Counted from the first letter of the stretch, positions 31,699-40,909 are shown. The stretch: 64,000 nt of DNA from Clostridia bacterium (GCA_017431145.1 JAFRLQ010000053.1:59710-123709), one strand, 5' to 3'. The notes: a model not told the origin generated them from the letters alone. Program-made: numbers and translations.

Positions 31699-32142
31699 TC
31701 ATGCTTCCTCCGGAGCCCAGGATTTCTGCAGTTCCTCGATGATCAGGAACCCGTCAGTTTTCACTGCGATCTGATACTGATCCTCATACACGATCTCGCC
31801 CGGCGAATTGGTGTAGACGAGATAATACGGATGATTGTATTTTTCCAGCAGCCAGAGCGCCGGACGGATCATCTTCATCATCTCTTCCGTGTTCTCTGTC
31901 TTGAACCAGCAGATGACAGGCTCCCTGCGCATGCACGGCTCGGGCCATGGAAGATGCTCCGCGAACCATCCGTCAATCTCTTTGAACAGTTCCGCGTCTT
32001 CCTCCTCCATCACATCATTCTGGACCATCTGCCAGCACATACTGAAAACACCCTTGGCATACATCGTGTTTTCCGCCAGTTCTTTCCCCTGTATCCGCGC
32101 ATATTTATACCTTGAGTTCATCCCCGGAATCCTCCCGTTCAT
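31699..32142 (-). CDS. Hypothetical cytoplasmic protein
   Basis: 147 aa with no recognisable family. Its ATG overlaps the stop of the upstream surface-protein gene (ATGA at 32139-32142). An alternative ATG at residue 8 has a GGGAGG RBS. Confidence 0.55.
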   Translation of the reverse strand: MNGRIPGMNSRYKYARIQGKELAENTMYAKGVFSMCWQMVQNDVMEEEDAELFKEIDGWFAEHLPWPEPCMRREPVICWFKTENTEEMMKMIRPALWLLEKYNHPYYLVYTNSPGEIVYEDQYQIAVKTDGFLIIEELQKSWAPEEA

Positions 32143-34055
32143 GCTGCTTTCTTCCTGCGTATCAGTATCAGGGCACAGCCCGCTGCCGCAGCTGCGATCA
32201 CCGCCGCAGCTCCGCCGCAGATCAGATAAAGCGGCATCCTGTAGCCCTTGACGGCAATATGCACCGTGCTTGCCGGCGTTTCCACAGCAGAGGGTCTGAA
32301 TACCGTTTCCGCTTTGATGAAAGAGCCGTATCCGGGCACTGCGAAGACATTCACTTCCCCTTTGCGGGGAACAGTGATCTGTGCCTTTTCAGCCAGGATA
32401 AAGCATGAAGGCGCGTACTGTGGAATATATGCCACAGCTGCTTCCACGGTTTCTCCCGTATCCGCCGCCAGCGCGATGCCGTTTTTCGCTTCTGACTTCA
32501 CGAAGCACTTCCGATCGGTCAGCGTGATATTCGCTGTTCCGAACAGGATTCCGTACGCCGTTCCTTCCTTGCCTGCACGCACTCTGGATTCCAGAACTGC
32601 GTCTGTAACGTTGAGTTCGCGTCCCACTGTCATGCCAAACGCTTCCGTCATTCCCCTGACGTCGAGTTTTGCTTTGCAGCCTTCCTCGAGCATAAAGAGT
32701 CCGCCGATCTGTACCGCGACCGTGTTCGCCGTTTTCGGCCCGTAGATTTTTACCTTCAGCACGCTTCCATTCATCAGGTCGACGGAATTTCCCGTCTCCC
32801 CTCCGAAGACACCGATCAGATTCCCCGTATACTCCTTCCTCGCGGGTCTGGCGGAAAGTTCGACATTGATGACTGCATTGTCCGCATTGATCGAACCCAG
32901 TCCGTTCAGCGAGATCCCGCTCAGCATGGCGATATACTGGTCTGTCGGAATGAAATTCTTCGGCACAGCCGTGCCTTTCACATTGAGCGTCGCGCCGTTG
33001 GCATAGATCGATCCCATAATGAACAGACTGTCCTTCACAGTCGGTCCCACAGAGACGCGTACGGGTTTTGAGTCTACATCCACGACGGCGCCGTCATACA
33101 TGCGCAGATCTCCGTCCGTATGGATCGCCGTTCCATGCGCGTTGATCGACGCGTGTGTTCCCTCATCGAAATACAGGGAATAGCATGTGATGCCGTCTGC
33201 GAAATCGTTCTTTCGCGGCCGGCCGGTAAAGTCAGACATAAACTCGATGTTCGCATCTGTATAGATATAGTTGCTTCCGCCTTTGATCACCAGCGGATCG
33301 CCGTCAAAAACGAGATTCGGATGATTCCCCTCACCTTTTGTTCCGAAGAACGCGTTGAACGTCACACCGCCGGAGTGGTAATCCGCGTCATAGTAGTTAT
33401 TGGTAATGACGCATTTCCCTTTCATGTGGAAATAGTACTCCAGATCCTCGCTGTTCCTGCGCATCAGAAACACACACAGGGCTGCTGATGTGCGGGGATC
33501 ACATACGAACCTGCCGTTGCTGAGCCTGACATTTTCAAACGTTATGTTCACGCCGTCGGGATCGAAGTACACCTTTCCTTTTCCAAGGCCTGCTCCCTTC
33601 AGATCAAGCTCGTCACCCGGCGTAAGCGCAAACTCGCCGATATAAAGGACCGTGATGTCCTCCGTCTTGTTCTTGTTGGTCAGTGTCGCCTCTTCCGTCG
33701 TCAGGACATTTCCCTTCCTGTCTTCCATGACACACCAGTATGTCAGCACTTCCTGTGAATCCTGTTCAATGGAAGGCACGATCAGCGTTTCCGTGTGCGC
33801 ACTGGAACCCTGAAGTTCAAAAATGTTGTATCCGTCTGAGAAATACCACTGATAGGATTTGATCTTCCCCGGCTTGTCCACTTCCACATGGAATTCCGCG
33901 CCGTTGGGGTAATTGACCTCCACACTCTGGGGCTGTGAAATGATCACGGGCGGCGCGTATGCCGCCGACGCCTTCTGCGGGATCAGGACCGCGCACACGA
34001 CCAGAAGCAGGATCCCGATTCCGAGGACCGCCATCTTTTTCAGTTCTCGTTTCAT
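32139..34055 (-). CDS. Secreted, C-terminally membrane-anchored surface protein with an N-terminal Ig-like domain and a probable beta-helix region
   Basis: 638 aa. Signal peptide MKRELKKMAVLGIGILLLVVCAVLIPQKASA. Ig-like module (PPVIISQPQSV...YQWYF...LTYWCVMED). C-terminal TM helix followed by RRKKAA. Confidence 0.7.
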   Translation of the reverse strand: MKRELKKMAVLGIGILLLVVCAVLIPQKASAAYAPPVIISQPQSVEVNYPNGAEFHVEVDKPGKIKSYQWYFSDGYNIFELQGSSAHTETLIVPSIEQDSQEVLTYWCVMEDRKGNVLTTEEATLTNKNKTEDITVLYIGEFALTPGDELDLKGAGLGKGKVYFDPDGVNITFENVRLSNGRFVCDPRTSAALCVFLMRRNSEDLEYYFHMKGKCVITNNYYDADYHSGGVTFNAFFGTKGEGNHPNLVFDGDPLVIKGGSNYIYTDANIEFMSDFTGRPRKNDFADGITCYSLYFDEGTHASINAHGTAIHTDGDLRMYDGAVVDVDSKPVRVSVGPTVKDSLFIMGSIYANGATLNVKGTAVPKNFIPTDQYIAMLSGISLNGLGSINADNAVINVELSARPARKEYTGNLIGVFGGETGNSVDLMNGSVLKVKIYGPKTANTVAVQIGGLFMLEEGCKAKLDVRGMTEAFGMTVGRELNVTDAVLESRVRAGKEGTAYGILFGTANITLTDRKCFVKSEAKNGIALAADTGETVEAAVAYIPQYAPSCFILAEKAQITVPRKGEVNVFAVPGYGSFIKAETVFRPSAVETPASTVHIAVKGYRMPLYLICGGAAAVIAAAAAGCALILIRRKKAA

Positions 34056-34086
34056 GCCTTTTCTCCTCCGCTGCTTTTTAATAAAA

Positions 34087-34110
34087 ACGCCCCGGCGTTT
34101 CCCGGGGCGT
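34087..34110 (-). terminator. Intrinsic terminator ending the STAS/MATE operon
   Basis: ACGCCCCGG-cgtttc-CCGGGGCGT, followed on the minus strand by TTTTTATT. Confidence 0.8.
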
Positions 34111-34119
34111 ATTTGGTTG

Positions 34120-35892
34120 TCAGACTTTGATCGTCAGAACATTCAGTCCGAGTATGTTCTGATACTGTATGTCCTCCGCCATCTTGAAGATCATGCGCAA
34201 TCCGATATTCTTTGTCACATCATCCGGATCGGCGATCTTCTGCCGTTCTCTGGGATCAAACGGCACGCAGTCGTCCTTCAGTCTCAGGATGAGGTCATTG
34301 TCTTTATGGACGACACGCACGTCAACAGAATGCTTCTTTTTGTCTTTCGTGAATCCGTGGTCGACGATATTGCCTGCCATTTCCTCCATCGCAAGACCTG
34401 CAAGATAGGACCTGTGTGCGTCGATCCCCTTCTCTTCGCAGAAAGCCTGGACCCGCTGCGAGATCGTTACGACATCCTCGATGCTTTTGATACTCAGGTC
34501 CATACGCTCATCGTCTGTCACACCGAAATCATCCGGTATGACCATAAGATCGTCCATGCTGCGCGGAAAATGTTTTTTGCGGATCAGTGCGTAGATGACG
34601 CAGATCAGGATGCATCCCACGCCGTTGAGGATATTGGCGATATATACGCTGTTCATCTTCAGAGCCGGGATCAGCAGCGCAGTGAAACCTGCAACAAACA
34701 CCGCCCCGTCGAACAGGGACAGGATATTGACGAGCACGTCCTTTCCGGAAGCCTGTCCGTAGTTGATGAAATGGATCGCGATGGTGCTCAGCGGCATACA
34801 GACCGGGATAAGCCGGAGGCCCCACACCGTCATCATGTAGACCGGATCCGCAGGATCCCGGTAGAAGATCCGTGTGAGCGGCACGGCGAAAATGATGAGC
34901 AATGCTGAAACCGCGCACATCAGCGGCACATAGCGCGTGAACATCACGCGCATGATATCTGCCAGCGTCCTCCTGTCTTCCTCGCCGACGCTGACGGACA
35001 TCAGCATACGGGAAACAGCCTGCATACCGAACGGGATCGCCCAGAATATCCTGAGCAGACTGTCCACCGCGGCAAACGCGGACAGCGCAACGCTCCCCAC
35101 ATAAGCAAGAAGCAGCGCGTTCACGATCAGTCCGCGGATCGTCTCATAGACTCTGGCGCTCGCCGCAGGGAAGCCGATGCGCAGGATCGCTCCGCTTTCC
35201 TTCCATGCAAGGCCTTTCATGCTGAATCTAAGATGCGATTTCTTGGAAAAGAAGTAAGGCGCCTGTACCAGAAAGAACGCCCAGAGCCCGATGGAGGAGG
35301 CCAGCGCCAGGCCGAAGATCTCCATTTTCAGCACAAGAACGAACAGGAAATTCAGAACGATATTCAGAAAGATGTAGACGCCGATCGCGACGAGCGTCCG
35401 GTTGCCTTTGTTCTCCATCGACAGAAATGCCTGCAGCTGGTTGCCCACCACGAGCGGGAACACGCCGATCGACATGCCCAGAAGATACTGATTGAACAGC
35501 GGCCGCAGCACTGGATCCTTGGCGAGAAAACCGGTCAGATCGAACGCACCGAAGATTACGAACAGAACTGTAAAAACGATCCCGATAATCGCTGAGATCA
35601 CCAGACTCAGCGAGAACACGTTGCGCATTTTCTCCTGCTGATTCTGCCCCATGTATTTCCCGCACAGGATCACGGAACCGCCGACCATCGTCATGTTGAT
35701 CGCCGTGATCAGCATATTGATGGGCCCGTACAATCCGATCGCGCTCATGGAATCGACGCTGATAAAGTTGCTGGCATAAAAACTGGAAACGATCCCGTTT
35801 ACCGCCGTCACTGCCGACAGCAGGATCTGGATCGGCAGAAGTTTCATCATCAGTTTTGCAATCATTTTGGTGTTGGCTGCCTGTTTTTCCAT
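34120..35892 (-). CDS. MATE-family efflux transporter fused to a C-terminal GHKL (SpoIIAB/RsbW-like anti-sigma) ATPase-fold domain
   Basis: 590 aa. About 450 aa form a 12-TM MATE-like core. The last 135 aa or so carry an N-box (EEMAGNIVDHG), a G1-like DDCVPFDP and a degenerate G2 (NIGLRMIF). Confidence 0.8.
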   Translation of the reverse strand: MEKQAANTKMIAKLMMKLLPIQILLSAVTAVNGIVSSFYASNFISVDSMSAIGLYGPINMLITAINMTMVGGSVILCGKYMGQNQQEKMRNVFSLSLVISAIIGIVFTVLFVIFGAFDLTGFLAKDPVLRPLFNQYLLGMSIGVFPLVVGNQLQAFLSMENKGNRTLVAIGVYIFLNIVLNFLFVLVLKMEIFGLALASSIGLWAFFLVQAPYFFSKKSHLRFSMKGLAWKESGAILRIGFPAASARVYETIRGLIVNALLLAYVGSVALSAFAAVDSLLRIFWAIPFGMQAVSRMLMSVSVGEEDRRTLADIMRVMFTRYVPLMCAVSALLIIFAVPLTRIFYRDPADPVYMMTVWGLRLIPVCMPLSTIAIHFINYGQASGKDVLVNILSLFDGAVFVAGFTALLIPALKMNSVYIANILNGVGCILICVIYALIRKKHFPRSMDDLMVIPDDFGVTDDERMDLSIKSIEDVVTISQRVQAFCEEKGIDAHRSYLAGLAMEEMAGNIVDHGFTKDKKKHSVDVRVVHKDNDLILRLKDDCVPFDPRERQKIADPDDVTKNIGLRMIFKMAEDIQYQNILGLNVLTIKV

Positions 35893-35907
35893 TGCAACTT
35901 CCCTCTT

Positions 35908-36696
35908 TCAATCGATCAGCCCGAAATGCCGCAGCGCATTTCCGATGCCGTCTTCATCCACTGTATCCGTTACGTAATCCGCAGCCGCCTTGACAGTGTC
36001 ACCTGCGTTTCCCATCGCAACACCGATCCCGGCAAACTGCAGCATTTCGATATCGTTTTCTCCGTCTCCGAATGCCATGATCTGGGAACGTTCCAGCCCG
36101 TTCTCGTCAAGGTATTTCTGAATGCCTGAGGCTTTTCCGCCGCCCCGTGGAATGATGTCGATACCCGTCTCAGCCCAGCTGGAAATAGAACATTCATCCA
36201 GAAGATCGTTCAGTATCTGCTTTTCATGCTCCGGGATAAATGCCAGGATCTGGTAGACGTTCTCCCCCTCATAGGTACCGATCTGCGGGATCGTGCCCAT
36301 CGTTTCCGCCTGTGTCTTCACAACGGTATCGTTGACGTAATTGATGTAGCGGTCGTTCTCCCCGATCAGCACGAACGGAATGCGTTTCGCACGGAATATC
36401 TGTTCCAGAACTTCCATTTCGCCTTTGTCGATCGCGGTCCCCGCATACACTTTCCTGTTTCCGTCCAGAAGCAGCTGCCCGTTCAGCGTCAGGTATCCGT
36501 CGAACTCGATCTCGCTGACCGGCAGTTTGGAGTATTCCTGCATATGTCTGCCCGTCGCAATGACCGTTTTGATCCCTTTTTCGCGCAGCCTCCGGAGCGC
36601 TACGCGCGTTTCCTGCGGCACGTCGTTCAGTTTATGTGACAGAAGCGTTCCGTCGACATCGAAAAACACCGCCCTGATATCATGTTCTCCGCTCAC
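35908..36696 (-). CDS. Cof-type HAD-IIB phosphatase
   Basis: HAD motif I FFDVDGTLL and motif IV GDGENDIEM. The track start (TTG at 36720) was trimmed to the GTG at 36696, which has an AGGAGG RBS 7 nt upstream. Confidence 0.8.
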   Translation of the reverse strand: MSGEHDIRAVFFDVDGTLLSHKLNDVPQETRVALRRLREKGIKTVIATGRHMQEYSKLPVSEIEFDGYLTLNGQLLLDGNRKVYAGTAIDKGEMEVLEQIFRAKRIPFVLIGENDRYINYVNDTVVKTQAETMGTIPQIGTYEGENVYQILAFIPEHEKQILNDLLDECSISSWAETGIDIIPRGGGKASGIQKYLDENGLERSQIMAFGDGENDIEMLQFAGIGVAMGNAGDTVKAAADYVTDTVDEDGIGNALRHFGLID

Positions 36697-37561
36697 TGTT
36701 GTACCTCCTGACCTTCTCAAAAAAACGCTTCATGCCCGCAGGCCCCTGTTCCGCATCCTCGAGATTCGTATCTCCGAGTTCGATCAGTTTGTTTTTGCCG
36801 TGGTAATCGCTTCCCGCCGTGACGTACAGCCCGTTCTTTTCCGCCAGTGTCAGAAGGCTCTCCGTCAGTCTTTTCGGGAAACCGGAATAGAACGCCTCAA
36901 GTCCCTGAAGTCCGAACCCCATGAGCCGTGAAACGCGCTCCTCCATCTCCTCTCCAATGATAAGCTGGTCTCCGCTCCCGTATGAGGGATGCGCCAGGAC
37001 CGGAATACCGCCCGACGCGAGGATCCCCTCGATCGCTTCTTCCGGCCGTACATACTCGCTTTTGAAATGGATCTTGTTGATGTAATCCAGGATCGCCTCT
37101 TCCTTGGTCTTCACATAGCCGTATTTCACCATCAGATTTCCGATGTGCGGCTTCCCGGGATTGTCCAGTGCGAAAAGCGCGTCCTTGTCCTCCTGTGAAA
37201 ACACGAATCCGAATTCCTTCTCGACAAAATCCACCCGCGCGCGCACCTTGTTCATGCGGTAGCTGTGTCCCAGATCCACGATCCGCTGCACACCTTCCGA
37301 TTGCGGCTCGTACCCGTATCCCAGAATGTGGTACTTCCCATATTCATCCTTGCAGGAGAACTCGGCGCCGGTGATGAACTGAGGGTCTTCGGGCTTCAGA
37401 ATATCCAGAACGATCCTGCAGCCTTTGACCGCATCGTGGTCCGTGACCGCGAAAAGACCGATCCCCGCGTCTTTTACGCGCAAAAGGATTTCCTCCGGCG
37501 TATCCGTGCCGTCGGAAACCCTTGTATGCATATGCAGATCGATCTTCTTAGGAATAACCAT
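36680..37561 (-). CDS. PHP-domain metal-dependent phosphoesterase
   Basis: 293 aa. IDLHMHTRVSDG, FAVTDHD, VLAHP and GSDYHG, which are PHP motifs. Confidence 0.8.
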   Translation of the reverse strand: MVIPKKIDLHMHTRVSDGTDTPEEILLRVKDAGIGLFAVTDHDAVKGCRIVLDILKPEDPQFITGAEFSCKDEYGKYHILGYGYEPQSEGVQRIVDLGHSYRMNKVRARVDFVEKEFGFVFSQEDKDALFALDNPGKPHIGNLMVKYGYVKTKEEAILDYINKIHFKSEYVRPEEAIEGILASGGIPVLAHPSYGSGDQLIIGEEMEERVSRLMGFGLQGLEAFYSGFPKRLTESLLTLAEKNGLYVTAGSDYHGKNKLIELGDTNLEDAEQGPAGMKRFFEKVRRYNSERRT

Positions 37562-37591
37562 ACCGTGTCTCTTCGTACCGCGACACTGCGG

Positions 37592-39169
37592 TCACAGATT
37601 CTTTTTCAGTTTCAGTATGTTTCTCCCGTCTTTGTATTCATAAACGATATCATCCATCGTTTTCTTTGCCAGGAATATGCCCAGTCCGCCGATCCTGCGT
37701 TCCTCCGCAGAGAGTGTCACATCGGGTTCCTCCGATGCCAGCGGATCATACGGGACCCCCTGATCCATGAACGTGATGGTGACAGTGACAGGCGCTTCGG
37801 ACACTTCCATCAGAACCGTCGCGTTTCCGTGTTCCGGTGCGTAGGCATAGTTCGCGATATTCACGAAGATCTCCTCCGCTGCGACAGCGATCTGCATGCG
37901 GGCTCTCGGAGGGCAGTCGGTATCCTCAAGATTCCTGTCGATGAAATCCAGCACTTCCTGCAGATTCTCCACGTCCGCACCGATCTCCAGCTCATTGCGG
38001 GCAAACAGCAGCGTATCCGTCTTTTCCAGCAGTTCCAGAAGCTCGCCCTTCCACAGTTCGATCTCCGCTCTGCCTTCAGGCGTCTCCATACCTTTCCTGC
38101 GGATCGATCTTCTGATCATGCGCGCATACCCGATGATCCTCGCCTTGTCTTCCACTTCGCGGATCCTGTACTCGTTCTGCGTTCCCAGATAAGCTGCCAG
38201 TGCTTTGTGCCAGAACTGTTTTCCGATGTCCAGCGTAAAGCCCTGGAAACGTTCGATCGCCGTATTGTCATACTCGGAGTATCCGATAAAGGAATTATAC
38301 ATGGACGCCAGTTCAAAGATCGGATGCCCGACCGCCAGCGTATCCATATCGATCAGCAGCGTCTCGTCGTTCTGAAGCATGACGTTTTTCGTATGGTAAT
38401 CACCATGGATCATATGATCGTCATGCGGCACTTCCTCGACCAGTCTGATCAGTTTTTCGCCTGCGTCCTCCGGCAGATAATCCTTCATGAAGCGCACCCA
38501 ATTGAGCGCCGTCTCCTTCATGTCCGGTAGTTTTCCTTCCGGGACCAGCGTGCTGTGGATCTTCTTCAGCATTCCGATATACTCTTCCACGCACCAGTCC
38601 ATCTTTTCGGGCTCCGTCTCCAGTATCTTCGAAAAGGAGCGGGCATTCAGAAATTCGAAAACCGATCCGTAACTGTCATTGACACGCACCACATCATAAG
38701 AGATCGCCGTCGGGATCCCGAGGACCAGCGCAAGACGCGCCACTTCCCTCTCATGCTGGATGTCCGCCAGCGCGTCCGCATTATTGTAGACCTTGATGAC
38801 ATTGTCCTGGTCGATCCTGTAGATCGTCCCGTTCGCACCGCGTCCGACTTCCTCGCATCCCTCCACGGAAACGACTCTGTACGCCTTTTCCACCTTCATC
38901 ATCTGCGTGAACCCAGTCATGTCGAGAATCTCGTAAACATCCGAGTTGACATTGATGATCCGAAGATCGGGATTCGTCTTTTTCAGACGCAGAAGGACAC
39001 GCAGGCCGGCGCTGGAAATGTATTCCAGCTCCTCCATATCAAGCACGACCGGCACTCCGGTTTTTCCATCCAGAACGGACTGTATATGCGCTTCCGCGTC
39101 TGCCGCATTGCGGGAATCGATCCTCCCTTTCAGATCGACTGTAACAGCCCCGTTGGTCAAGTCAGCCAT
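37592..39169 (-). CDS. Three-domain signalling protein: STAS + APH/ChoK-like protein-kinase-fold phosphotransferase + GHKL (anti-sigma-type) ATPase domain
   Basis: 525 aa. STAS motif LEYISSAGLRVLL (residues 48-60). Kinase motifs GRGANGTIY, VIKVY, HGDYHTKN (255-262) and LIDMD (272-276). GHKL motifs EEIFVNIANY, DQGVPYDP and GGLGIFL (494-500). Confidence 0.8.
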   Translation of the reverse strand: MADLTNGAVTVDLKGRIDSRNAADAEAHIQSVLDGKTGVPVVLDMEELEYISSAGLRVLLRLKKTNPDLRIINVNSDVYEILDMTGFTQMMKVEKAYRVVSVEGCEEVGRGANGTIYRIDQDNVIKVYNNADALADIQHEREVARLALVLGIPTAISYDVVRVNDSYGSVFEFLNARSFSKILETEPEKMDWCVEEYIGMLKKIHSTLVPEGKLPDMKETALNWVRFMKDYLPEDAGEKLIRLVEEVPHDDHMIHGDYHTKNVMLQNDETLLIDMDTLAVGHPIFELASMYNSFIGYSEYDNTAIERFQGFTLDIGKQFWHKALAAYLGTQNEYRIREVEDKARIIGYARMIRRSIRRKGMETPEGRAEIELWKGELLELLEKTDTLLFARNELEIGADVENLQEVLDFIDRNLEDTDCPPRARMQIAVAAEEIFVNIANYAYAPEHGNATVLMEVSEAPVTVTITFMDQGVPYDPLASEEPDVTLSAEERRIGGLGIFLAKKTMDDIVYEYKDGRNILKLKKNL

Positions 39170-39209
39170 TTTGTCCTCCTTTGTATTGCAGACAGATTCT
39201 CATACGCCC

Positions 39210-39512
39210 TTATTCGATCGTCAGAATCTCCGCGAAACCGGTCAGCTCAAAGATCTCCGCGATCGTATCGTTCAGATTCCGAACCTTCATTTCGCCTTTT
39301 TCCTTGTTCATGATCTTCTGCGTCGCAAGCAGCACACGCAGTCCGGCGGAAGAGATATAATCCAGTTTCTCAAAATCCAGAGTCAGATCTTTCACGCCTT
39401 CCAAAGAGTTCATCAGATCCTCTTCCAGAACAGGGGCTGTGATGGTATCCAGTCTCCCTTCCAGTGCGAACAAAGCTTTTCCCTCTTCGATTGTCTTGTT
39501 GATATTCAGCAT
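39210..39512 (-). CDS. STAS-domain protein (anti-sigma-factor-antagonist type)
   Basis: 100 aa. DYISSAGLRVLL with the conserved Ser-Ser. The 11 residues YISSAGLRVLL are identical to those in the STAS domain of the next gene. Confidence 0.85.
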   Translation of the reverse strand: MLNINKTIEEGKALFALEGRLDTITAPVLEEDLMNSLEGVKDLTLDFEKLDYISSAGLRVLLATQKIMNKEKGEMKVRNLNDTIAEIFELTGFAEILTIE

Positions 39513-39696
39513 TCCGTTATACTCCTTTTTCTGCTGTTATTCTGATACGGACAGTTTCCTGCCTTAAAAAAAGTAAAACCACGCTCTTATCCACCTATAA
39601 TACAGGTGAGCATTCTTATGTATATTTTCTATCCTCAGCACGCCCTGTGTCAAGTCTTTCATACGTGCTTGACATATGCCGAAAAGAAAAACCGAA

Positions 39697-39728
39697 AGCT
39701 CCGGGCGGTATCCGCCGCTCCGGAGCTC
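39697..39728 (-). terminator. Intrinsic terminator downstream of recA
   Basis: AGCTCCGG-GCGG-tatc-CGCC-g-CTCCGGAGCT hairpin. The minus-strand reading is followed by GGTTTTTCTTTT. Confidence 0.75.
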
Positions 39729-39757
39729 CTGCTGTATATCTTGTTTTCCGTAAATGC

Positions 39758-40786
39758 TCAGTCCTCGTCCATTCCCGGCGCACCGGAGAGGATCTGCCGG
39801 ATCTTCTCCTCCACTTCCGCGGCGACGTCCGGATTGTCCGCGAGGTACTGCTTGGCATTCTCTCTTCCCTGTCCGATCCTTTCACCCATATAGGAATACC
39901 ATGAACCGCTTTTCACGATCACACCGTGTTCTGCGCCGAGGTCGATCAGAGAACCGGTCCTGGAGACGCCGCGTCCGTAGATGATATCAAATTCAGCGAC
40001 CTTGAACGGCGGCGCAAGTTTGTTTTTCACGACCTTGATGCGCGTGCGGTTGCCGACCAGTTCGCCTCCGACCTTGATCGTATCGATGCGCCGCACGTCC
40101 AGACGGATGCTGGCATAGAATTTCAGCGCACGTCCGCCGGCAGTCGTTTCGGGGTTGCCGAACATTACGCCGATCTTTTCACGCAGTTGGTTGATGAAGA
40201 TCACGATGGTCTTGGACTTCGACACCGTGCCCGAGAGTTTTCTCAGCGCCTGGGACATCAGTCTTGCCTGCAATCCGACATGGGAATCGCCCATGTCCCC
40301 CTCCAGCTCCGCCTTGGGAACCAGCGCTGCCACCGAGTCGATGACAATCAGATCGATCGCTCCGCTGCGCGCCAGCGCATCCGCGATATCCAGCGCCTGT
40401 TCGCCGCTGTCCGGCTGGGAAACATACATCTCGTTCACGTCCACACCCAGGTTTCCGGCATAGACGGGATCCAGCGCGTGTTCTGCGTCGATGAACGCCG
40501 CGATGCCGCCCGCTTTCTGTGTTTCCGCCACCGCATGCAGCGCGATCGTCGTTTTACCGGAAGACTCAGGTCCGTAGATCTCGATCACGCGTCCACGGGG
40601 GAATCCGCCGATCCCCAGCGCCAGATCCAGTTCCAGACATCCGGTCGGGATGACGGAAACGTTCATGTTCGCCGTGTTCTCTCCCAGTCTCATGATCGAG
40701 CCTTTTCCGAACTGTTTCTCGATCTGTGCCAATGCAACGTCCAGTGCGTGCTGTTTTTCCGCAGGCAGTCTGTCATTCTTGTCCAT
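39758..40786 (-). CDS. recA: Recombinase RecA
   Basis: Walker [10 protein letters not shown] and a RecA-like sequence throughout. The track start at 40801 was trimmed to MDKNDRL at 40786, which has a GAGGGAG RBS. Confidence 0.95.
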
Positions 40787-40909
40787 ATTCCGCTCCCTCA
40801 TTCTTTCGCTAAATGTTTTTTACCTGAAATCGCCTTGCAATATCATCTTAAAGAAGAATCTTCCGGAAAACAATATCCCTTTTTCATGGTGTCGCTGTTT
40901 GGCGACACC

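Follow-up and report, generated by a model that had tools for sequence, protein, structure and literature searches.

An anti-sigma-type domain tethered to a MATE transporter in a partner-switching-like operon of a gut or rumen Clostridia bacterium

What does a partner switch control when one of its anti-sigma-type domains is part of a membrane transporter? The question is raised by a stretch of 64,000 nucleotides (hereafter the window) from an uncultured gut or rumen Clostridia bacterium (GCA_017431145.1, JAFRLQ010000053.1:59710-123709). Five minus-strand open reading frames (ORFs) at 34120-39512 form one compact operon. They encode, in this order, a stand-alone STAS protein, a fusion of STAS, APH-like kinase and RsbW-type GHKL domains (the triple fusion), a PHP phosphoesterase, a Cof-type HAD phosphatase, and a MATE transporter with a C-terminal GHKL domain (MATE-GHKL). 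Partner switching is the textbook mode of control of alternative sigma factors in Gram-positive bacteria; to our knowledge few of its outputs are not sigma factors, and no transporter is among them. The association of STAS, kinase and PP2C genes with MATE-GHKL is well supported as a conserved, though rearranged, synteny, and from the domains encoded we infer that the operon works like partner switching, with an anti-sigma-type domain built into a MATE pump.

Linkage of MATE-GHKL to partner-switching genes

Relatives of MATE-GHKL are present in at least 251 species genomes, mostly metagenome-assembled genomes of rumen and gut Clostridia. The fusion is also borne by isolates such as Ruminococcaceae bacterium YRB3002 and Butyrivibrio hungatei DSM 14810, and these cultured carriers make the idea of a switched transporter testable. 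At E <= 1e-10 the tethered-domain subtype comprises 922 clusters (50% identity). Among the best 150 domain matches, the full-length proteins have ~580-610 residues with the domain at the C-terminus, while the shorter proteins also end in the domain and look like fragments. The source annotations of the relatives are generic, e.g. "ATP-binding protein", and full-text literature searches found no paper describing the MATE-GHKL fusion, the operon or a wiring of this kind. Hence, a large conserved family whose genes recur next to those of STAS, kinase and PP2C partners appears in no study that we found.

To describe the surroundings of MATE-GHKL, genes for STAS proteins, RsbW-like kinases, STAS-APH proteins and SpoIIE-type PP2Cs were counted in 80 species loci by a census based on hidden Markov models (HMMs); L numbers are the labels of the related loci compared. 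At least one partner-switching gene was found near MATE-GHKL in 32 of the 80 loci. Upstream of MATE-GHKL, the density of such genes was 19.3 per 100 kb within 2.5 kb and 11.1 at 2.5-5 kb, and none was found 2.5-10 kb downstream in the 394 kb surveyed. Nearly all (64/69) lie on the same strand as MATE-GHKL, and in some loci a STAS gene is located immediately upstream, at a gap of 9-17 nt. The linked loci are scattered over the whole MATE-GHKL family tree, including its deepest branches. The bias in position and strand, together with the shuffled arrangements, led us to reject accidental adjacency. An earlier interpretation of the window, made from its nucleotides alone (the sequence-only reading), had taken the STAS and GHKL genes to belong with the transporter, and this link is borne out as conserved and non-random.

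The arrangements vary considerably. The order triple fusion, PHP, MATE-GHKL is seen in L009, L019, L035, L047 and L073, and the triple fusion is followed by MATE-GHKL in L020. A STAS gene stands immediately ahead of MATE-GHKL in L012, and in L023 the order is PP2C, STAS, MATE-GHKL. L011 and L037 have three or four STAS genes, a PP2C and a stand-alone GHKL gene ahead of MATE-GHKL, while L018, L041, L046 and L051 contain a separate GHKL gene and a STAS-APH gene. In L008, L014-L016 and the Butyrivibrio loci L084/L085 a PP2C gene adjoins MATE-GHKL, with STAS absent within 10 kb. The three activities can also be split otherwise: in L018, L025, L041 and L046 the PP2C, and not STAS-APH, carries the RsbW-like GHKL domain, fused at its C-terminus.

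Other genes recur around these loci. A protein of ~180-203 residues without a Pfam match alternates with STAS genes in tandem arrays (L011:2942-5027, L037:3480-6124, L013, L030 and L134); in hhalign comparisons it shows weak similarity to GHKL domains (E = 0.006-0.014). A VanX-like Peptidase_M15, a DUF218 (SanA/YdcF-like) membrane protein and DUF3089 proteins were found in L001, L009, L011-L013, L018, L019, L047, L166 and many of L086-L165, and ABC exporters with a C39 peptidase lie nearby in six loci. These recurrent envelope genes hint at a cell-envelope or antimicrobial-stress theme.

A second survey started from the triple fusion and covered 80 metagenome loci around it. STAS, the triple fusion and PHP make up their conserved core, in many cases joined by a lipoprotein and a membrane PP2C, and DUF218 and the VanX-like M15 peptidase are frequent. 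Where the flank was long enough, a PP2C gene was found within 200 nt upstream of the triple fusion in 21/54 loci. In 13/54 the STAS gene lies directly upstream of the fusion with no intervening PP2C, as in the window, and a PP2C elsewhere is possible there.

Domains of the encoded proteins

MATE-GHKL (34120-35892, minus strand, like all five genes; 590 residues) matches the Pfam families MatE in two stretches (77.8 bits) and HATPase_c_2 (42.3 bits). The MATE part covers residues 1-445 (34558-35892) and the GHKL domain residues 472-587 (34132-34479). In a full-length AlphaFold2 model, 12 transmembrane helices are followed by an alpha/beta domain, and in a Foldseek search with this model PfMATE (6fhz, 6gwh; TM-score about 0.77 on the target) and DinF-BH were the best matches. 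A lipid-linked-sugar flippase of the Wzx or MurJ type was considered and dropped, as PfMATE, DinF and NorM outrank Wzx and MurJ in this search. The two MatE stretches, the 12 predicted helices and the fold place the protein in the MATE family, and the complete 12-helix MATE fold is conserved throughout the MATE-GHKL relatives. Compared with MATE transporters of the DinF/PfMATE type, with which it shares the two MatE repeats and the 12 predicted helices, the protein has an additional 145-residue C-terminal stretch with the anti-sigma-type GHKL domain and, at 113 bits, stays below the TIGR00797 cut-off of 147 bits.

The type of the tethered domain became apparent at the level of structure. PDB sequence searches with the domain, alone or as a profile, gave chance-level matches only. 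When residues 446-590 were modelled separately (predicted local distance difference test, pLDDT, 79.6), the 13 best Foldseek matches in the PDB were all anti-sigma GHKL proteins, namely SpoIIAB, UsfX and RsbW, with E-values up to 2.3e-5 and, for 12 of the 13, TM-scores of 0.65-0.76 on the target. Histidine-kinase domains score far lower. In agreement with the sequence-only reading, the predicted model is hence of the SpoIIAB/RsbW structural type. Across 150 family representatives the Glu, Asn and His of the N box and the Asp of the G1 box are conserved, which suggests that nucleotide binding is probably retained. A dead pseudokinase, as might be proposed from the Gly-to-Cys exchange in G1 and the weak G2 box, was not adopted in view of the strict conservation of these residues. 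The cysteine in question, Cys543 (34264-34266), may respond to the redox state, or may just be a trait of the nucleotide pocket in this family.

The STAS units provide the putative phosphorylation sites of the switch. The stand-alone STAS protein (39210-39512; 100 residues) matches Pfam STAS with 60.6 bits (1.4e-16) and TIGR00377 with 68.5 bits, above its cut-off. The triple fusion (37592-39169; 525 residues) contains STAS, APH and HATPase_c_2 domains (49.5, 62.0 and 74.6 bits, respectively). Its STAS domain comprises residues ~1-100, and Ser53 (codon 39011-39013) aligns with the phospho-acceptor of SpoIIAA, Ser58, the residue replaced in PDB entry 1TID. The surrounding motif YISSAGLRV is invariant among 12 triple-fusion homologues and is shared by the stand-alone protein, so that the acceptor serine is present in both STAS units; carried over from the paralogous domain through this motif, the register predicts Ser55 (codon 39348-39350) as the phospho-acceptor of the stand-alone STAS protein.

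The APH-like kinase of the fusion spans residues 106-385 (38015-38854). Its motifs GRGANGTIY...VKV, HGDYHTKN and IDMD are invariant in the 12 homologues, i.e. the Gly-rich loop and Lys, the catalytic loop and the metal-binding Asp are all kept. Equally invariant are the boxes of the RsbW-type GHKL domain (residues 398-523; 37601-37978), with E-x3-N in the N box, DxGxPYDP in G1 and GGLGI in G2. With an identity of 72-78% among top homologues, compared with about 65% for MATE-GHKL, the triple fusion ranks first in conservation within the module. Taken as a partner switch, the operon therefore has a STAS antagonist with a conserved phosphorylatable serine and two HATPase_c_2 domains with a predicted kinase role, while two classical elements, a sigma target in the cluster and its annotated flanks and a local PP2C, are missing.

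With respect to the latter, when all ORFs of the 64-kb window were scanned with HMMs, no PP2C, no additional STAS and no additional GHKL protein was found. The cluster and its annotated flanks contain no sigma factor, the other genes of the window not having been scanned with a sigma model. The statement of the sequence-only reading that both are missing from the window thus stands for PP2C, and for sigma factors as far as the cluster and annotated flanks. The annotated neighbourhoods of the related loci contain no sigma-70 family gene either, and among 80 representatives of unexplained neighbour genes no sigma family was found in the Pfam families matched by at least two. The description of the module itself as PP2C-less, on the other hand, applies to this window only: a SpoIIE-type membrane PP2C is encoded in the same operon in about 25 of the 80 MATE-GHKL loci, besides the 21/54 triple-fusion loci given above. 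These calls were confirmed as Pfam SpoIIE domains located behind HAMP, 5TMR-LYT or Reg_prop sensor regions, and no docking domain of the RsbU_N type was detected in them by Pfam. Directly upstream of the membrane PP2C, at least nine loci encode a lipoprotein of ~207 residues with two internal repeats and no Pfam match (L093:7704-8327; L008, L011, L015, L016, L019, L041, L046 and L047), which may be a co-sensor of the phosphatase.

The PHP protein (36680-37561; 293 residues; Pfam PHP 36.9 bits) is of the TrpH/YciV-like type. Its best NCBIfam matches, 3',5'-nucleoside bisphosphate phosphatase (2e-29) and RNase RNM (7e-26), both remain below the equivalog cut-offs (NF041577, 102.6 bits, cut-off 400; NF047791, 91 bits, cut-off 375). 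The closest families are hence nucleotide phosphoesterases (pAp phosphatase and RNase RNM). Of the 62 loci with enough flank, 39 have a PHP gene no more than 200 nt downstream of the triple fusion, whether a PP2C is present or absent. Because it follows the triple fusion regardless of PP2C and resembles nucleotide phosphoesterases, PHP is not an evident replacement for the latter; it is more likely, judged by these similarities and positions, to be a partner of the APH kinase than a stand-in for PP2C.

The HAD protein of the Cof-type HAD-IIB class (35908-36696; 262 residues from GTG 36696) matches Hydrolase_3 with 186 bits and TIGR00099 (Cof) with 187.5 bits. Its ORF reaches back to a TTG at 36720 (270 residues), while public gene calls for the same species choose GTG 36696. 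A HAD gene adjoining MATE-GHKL recurs only in L001, L093/L166 and L101, i.e. in about four lineages, and by this distribution it is a sporadic, lineage-specific accessory gene.

A switch with the transporter as candidate output

The recurrence of the same pairing in related species suggests that the switch probably acts on the membrane transporter and not on a sigma factor. In the mechanism that we propose, the stand-alone STAS protein would alternate between a Ser-phosphorylated and an unphosphorylated state, and the STAS domain of the triple fusion would probably do the same. The main STAS kinase would be the GHKL domain of this fusion, which is of the canonical RsbW type. In the relatives, the operon-encoded SpoIIE-type PP2C with its membrane sensor would be both the phosphatase and the signal input; in the genome of the window the phosphatase may be encoded elsewhere. 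Unphosphorylated STAS would dock on the C-terminal SpoIIAB-like GHKL domain of the MATE protein and alter its transport activity. By analogy, a GHKL domain of the SpoIIAB subtype would be a natural docking site for unphosphorylated STAS. The tethered domain would then play the anti-sigma role, with the MATE membrane domain substituting for sigma. As the PP2Cs have membrane sensor domains and an adjacent lipoprotein, an input at the PP2C leaves the transporter as the output. We give this reading, in which STAS binding to the tethered domain switches transport, an even chance. The switch may also control a second pair of effectors, the STAS-fused APH-like kinase and the neighbouring PHP, of which the first would probably phosphorylate a small molecule or nucleotide and the other act on it as phosphoesterase, and the HAD protein would be an accessory of this lineage.

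Envelope genes, namely those for a VanX-like dipeptidase and the SanA-like DUF218 protein, are often found beside the module. A wider proposal, which we consider unlikely as a whole, would be a stress switch independent of transcription, in which the membrane PP2C senses an envelope or toxin signal and dephosphorylated STAS activates two effectors of the resistance type together at the protein level, the STAS-fused APH-family small-molecule kinase and the GHKL-bearing MATE efflux pump.

Several observations weigh against the transporter as output. No partner-switching gene was found within 10 kb of MATE-GHKL in 48 of the 80 loci (60%). Of 16 triple-fusion loci with at least 5 kb on both flanks, all 16 contain STAS, 11 PHP and 10 PP2C, but just 6 contain MATE-GHKL, so that the link between the triple fusion and MATE-GHKL is facultative. 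The Gly of the G1 box in the tethered domain is replaced by a nearly invariant Cys (139/150 representatives), and its G2 box has shrunk to N-I-G-I-R. The confidence of the full-length model is moderate (pLDDT 67.8), and no phospho-STAS phosphatase was identified in the window. Finally, the sequence by itself is silent on which way the signal runs, and the direction proposed here is one that we infer.

The transporter could instead be the input. In that case MATE would sense its substrate or ion flux, and the tethered GHKL domain, either by kinase activity of its own or by activating the PP2C in the manner of RsbT, would set the phosphorylation state of STAS, with the APH kinase (together with PHP) or an unlinked target as effector. 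The strict conservation of the N-box Glu and Asn and the G1 Asp, as in an active enzyme, is in agreement with such a role, and in L012, L023, L008, L014-L016, L084 and L085, which have STAS and/or PP2C genes, MATE-GHKL is the sole GHKL protein. The STAS-APH unit is also better conserved than the transporter (72-78% compared with about 65%). However, the PP2Cs already bear large membrane or extracytoplasmic sensors and show no RsbU_N-type docking domain by Pfam, and both the G1 and the G2 box of the tethered domain are atypical. MATE proteins are known as transporters, and we know of none that acts as a sensor. Altogether, an input role appears rather unlikely. The proximity might also reflect co-regulation only, the GHKL domain being an autonomous ATP/ADP sensor or a dimerisation module that gates the pump, and a shared envelope-stress regulon explaining why the genes lie together. 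This would account for the 60% of MATE-GHKL loci that are solitary and for DUF218, the VanX-like M15 peptidase and DUF3089 in the neighbourhood. We nevertheless hold it to be quite improbable, because the subtype of the tethered domain is specifically that of anti-sigma factors, for which STAS proteins and sigma factors are the partners known, and because partner genes directly precede MATE-GHKL on its own strand in many different orders, with STAS gaps of 9-17 nt.

As the fold of the tethered domain matches SpoIIAB, RsbW and UsfX, all of them sigma binders, MATE-GHKL may alternatively be a membrane-anchored anti-sigma factor that holds an unlinked sigma factor until STAS releases it. The annotated neighbourhoods are devoid of sigma-70 genes, though, with none recurring among the 80 neighbour representatives, and a mere anchor would hardly need a conserved, complete 12-helix MATE fold, which makes this role very improbable. 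The remaining question concerns the phosphatase. The sequence-only reading had left PHP and HAD as the only candidates in the window, and one or both could dephosphorylate phospho-STAS in place of the absent PP2C. Besides the lack of a PP2C in the 64-kb window, about a quarter of the triple-fusion loci likewise have none between STAS and the fusion, with a PP2C elsewhere being possible, and PHP-fold protein phosphatases such as CpsB/YwqE exist. The comparison of loci speaks against the replacement: PHP is constant after the fusion with or without a PP2C and does not compensate for PP2C loss, it is of nucleotide type, and HAD is confined to about four lineages. A PP2C may also be encoded elsewhere in the genome. 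We therefore regard PHP or HAD as phospho-STAS phosphatase as decidedly unlikely.

Among known systems, the SpoIIAA/SpoIIAB/SpoIIE-sigmaF and RsbV/RsbW/RsbU-sigmaB switches of Bacillus resemble the operon in the position of the STAS acceptor serine, in the HATPase_c_2 Ser-kinase/anti-sigma domains and in the SpoIIE-type PP2C of the relatives' operons. Unlike them, the operon has no sigma factor in the cluster or its flanks, one of its GHKL domains is fused to a 12-helix MATE protein and the other to STAS-APH, and the window lacks a PP2C. Rv1364c of Mycobacterium tuberculosis, which we take to be a PP2C-RsbW-STAS fusion, likewise carries STAS and an RsbW-type GHKL domain in one polypeptide, suggesting intramolecular or inter-subunit switching. 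In the triple fusion, by contrast, an APH-family kinase is located between STAS and GHKL, and the PP2C of the relatives is a separate membrane protein.

The closest precedents are partner switches in which the STAS phospho-switch has a target other than sigma. They include BtrUVW in Bordetella and HsbA/HsbR in Pseudomonas. Further examples are SypA/SypE of Vibrio fischeri and All4160/Alr3423/HenR of Anabaena (PMC10120452, PMC4517449, bioRxiv 10.64898/2026.04.08.717354); for the recently reported Anabaena system, an envelope-polysaccharide enzyme was proposed to be the direct target. There the STAS domain is fused to the effector, whereas here the anti-sigma-like GHKL domain is, and the effector would be a transporter. 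None of these four systems has a MATE, APH or PHP component. Cytoplasmic domains of the partner-switch type are found on transporters in SLC26/SulP proteins with a C-terminal STAS domain and in MlaB-MlaFE, where they are required for function (PMC8256260). MATE-GHKL is the mirror image of SLC26/SulP, with the GHKL partner in place of STAS on a transporter of a different fold (MATE/MOP). If STAS binding gates the pump, partner switching would gain a new class of output, its first in which a transporter is gated directly, and the old puzzle of the STAS domains on SLC26 transporters would gain a counterpart. Such gating would also provide a fast post-translational control of MATE efflux, relevant to drug or metabolite export in gut anaerobes.

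Operon boundaries and flanking genes

The five ORFs, their coordinates and their spacing were reproduced as given by the sequence-only reading. The intergenic gaps are 40, 30 and 15 nt, and PHP and HAD overlap by 17 nt if the latter starts at GTG 36696. The HMM searches likewise agree with the earlier domain assignments, with STAS, GHKL, APH, MatE, PHP and Hydrolase_3 all above the gathering cut-offs of Pfam in the five proteins. Upstream, the unit is bounded by a hairpin and T-run on the minus strand (39692-39728), 3' of the recA stop codon (39758), which was read from the sequence and of which the terminator scan likewise gave the inner stem. It is followed by a candidate sigma-70-like promoter, TTGACA-18-GAAAAT (39624-39653, minus strand), proposed on the match to 10 of 12 consensus positions, and by an AGGAG ribosome-binding site ahead of the ATG at 39512, the start of the STAS gene. 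The downstream boundary is an intrinsic terminator (34087-34110, minus strand), which begins 9 nt past the MATE-GHKL stop codon and consists of a 9-bp stem with 8 G-C pairs, followed by TTTTTATT. The terminator scan found no terminator-like site in the intergenic gaps of the cluster. Both ends of the operon are thus where they had been placed before, with a promoter-like site upstream.

An Rfam scan of 33500-40500 revealed no riboswitch or leader, the lone match, sX6, being at chance level (E = 0.33), and a repeat search gave nothing meaningful. Among seven proteins, the PADLOC models of anti-phage defence had no match, so that the cluster is not one of the known defence systems. Together with two further proteins, the cluster lies between recA (on the 39758-40801 side) and the RNase Y gene rny (on the 31699-34055 side). 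One of the two has 638 residues and is secreted and C-terminally anchored, the other has 147 residues, and neither has a Pfam, NCBIfam or PADLOC match. As recA and rny are frequently adjacent in Firmicutes, the five-gene cluster looks like an insertion between them.

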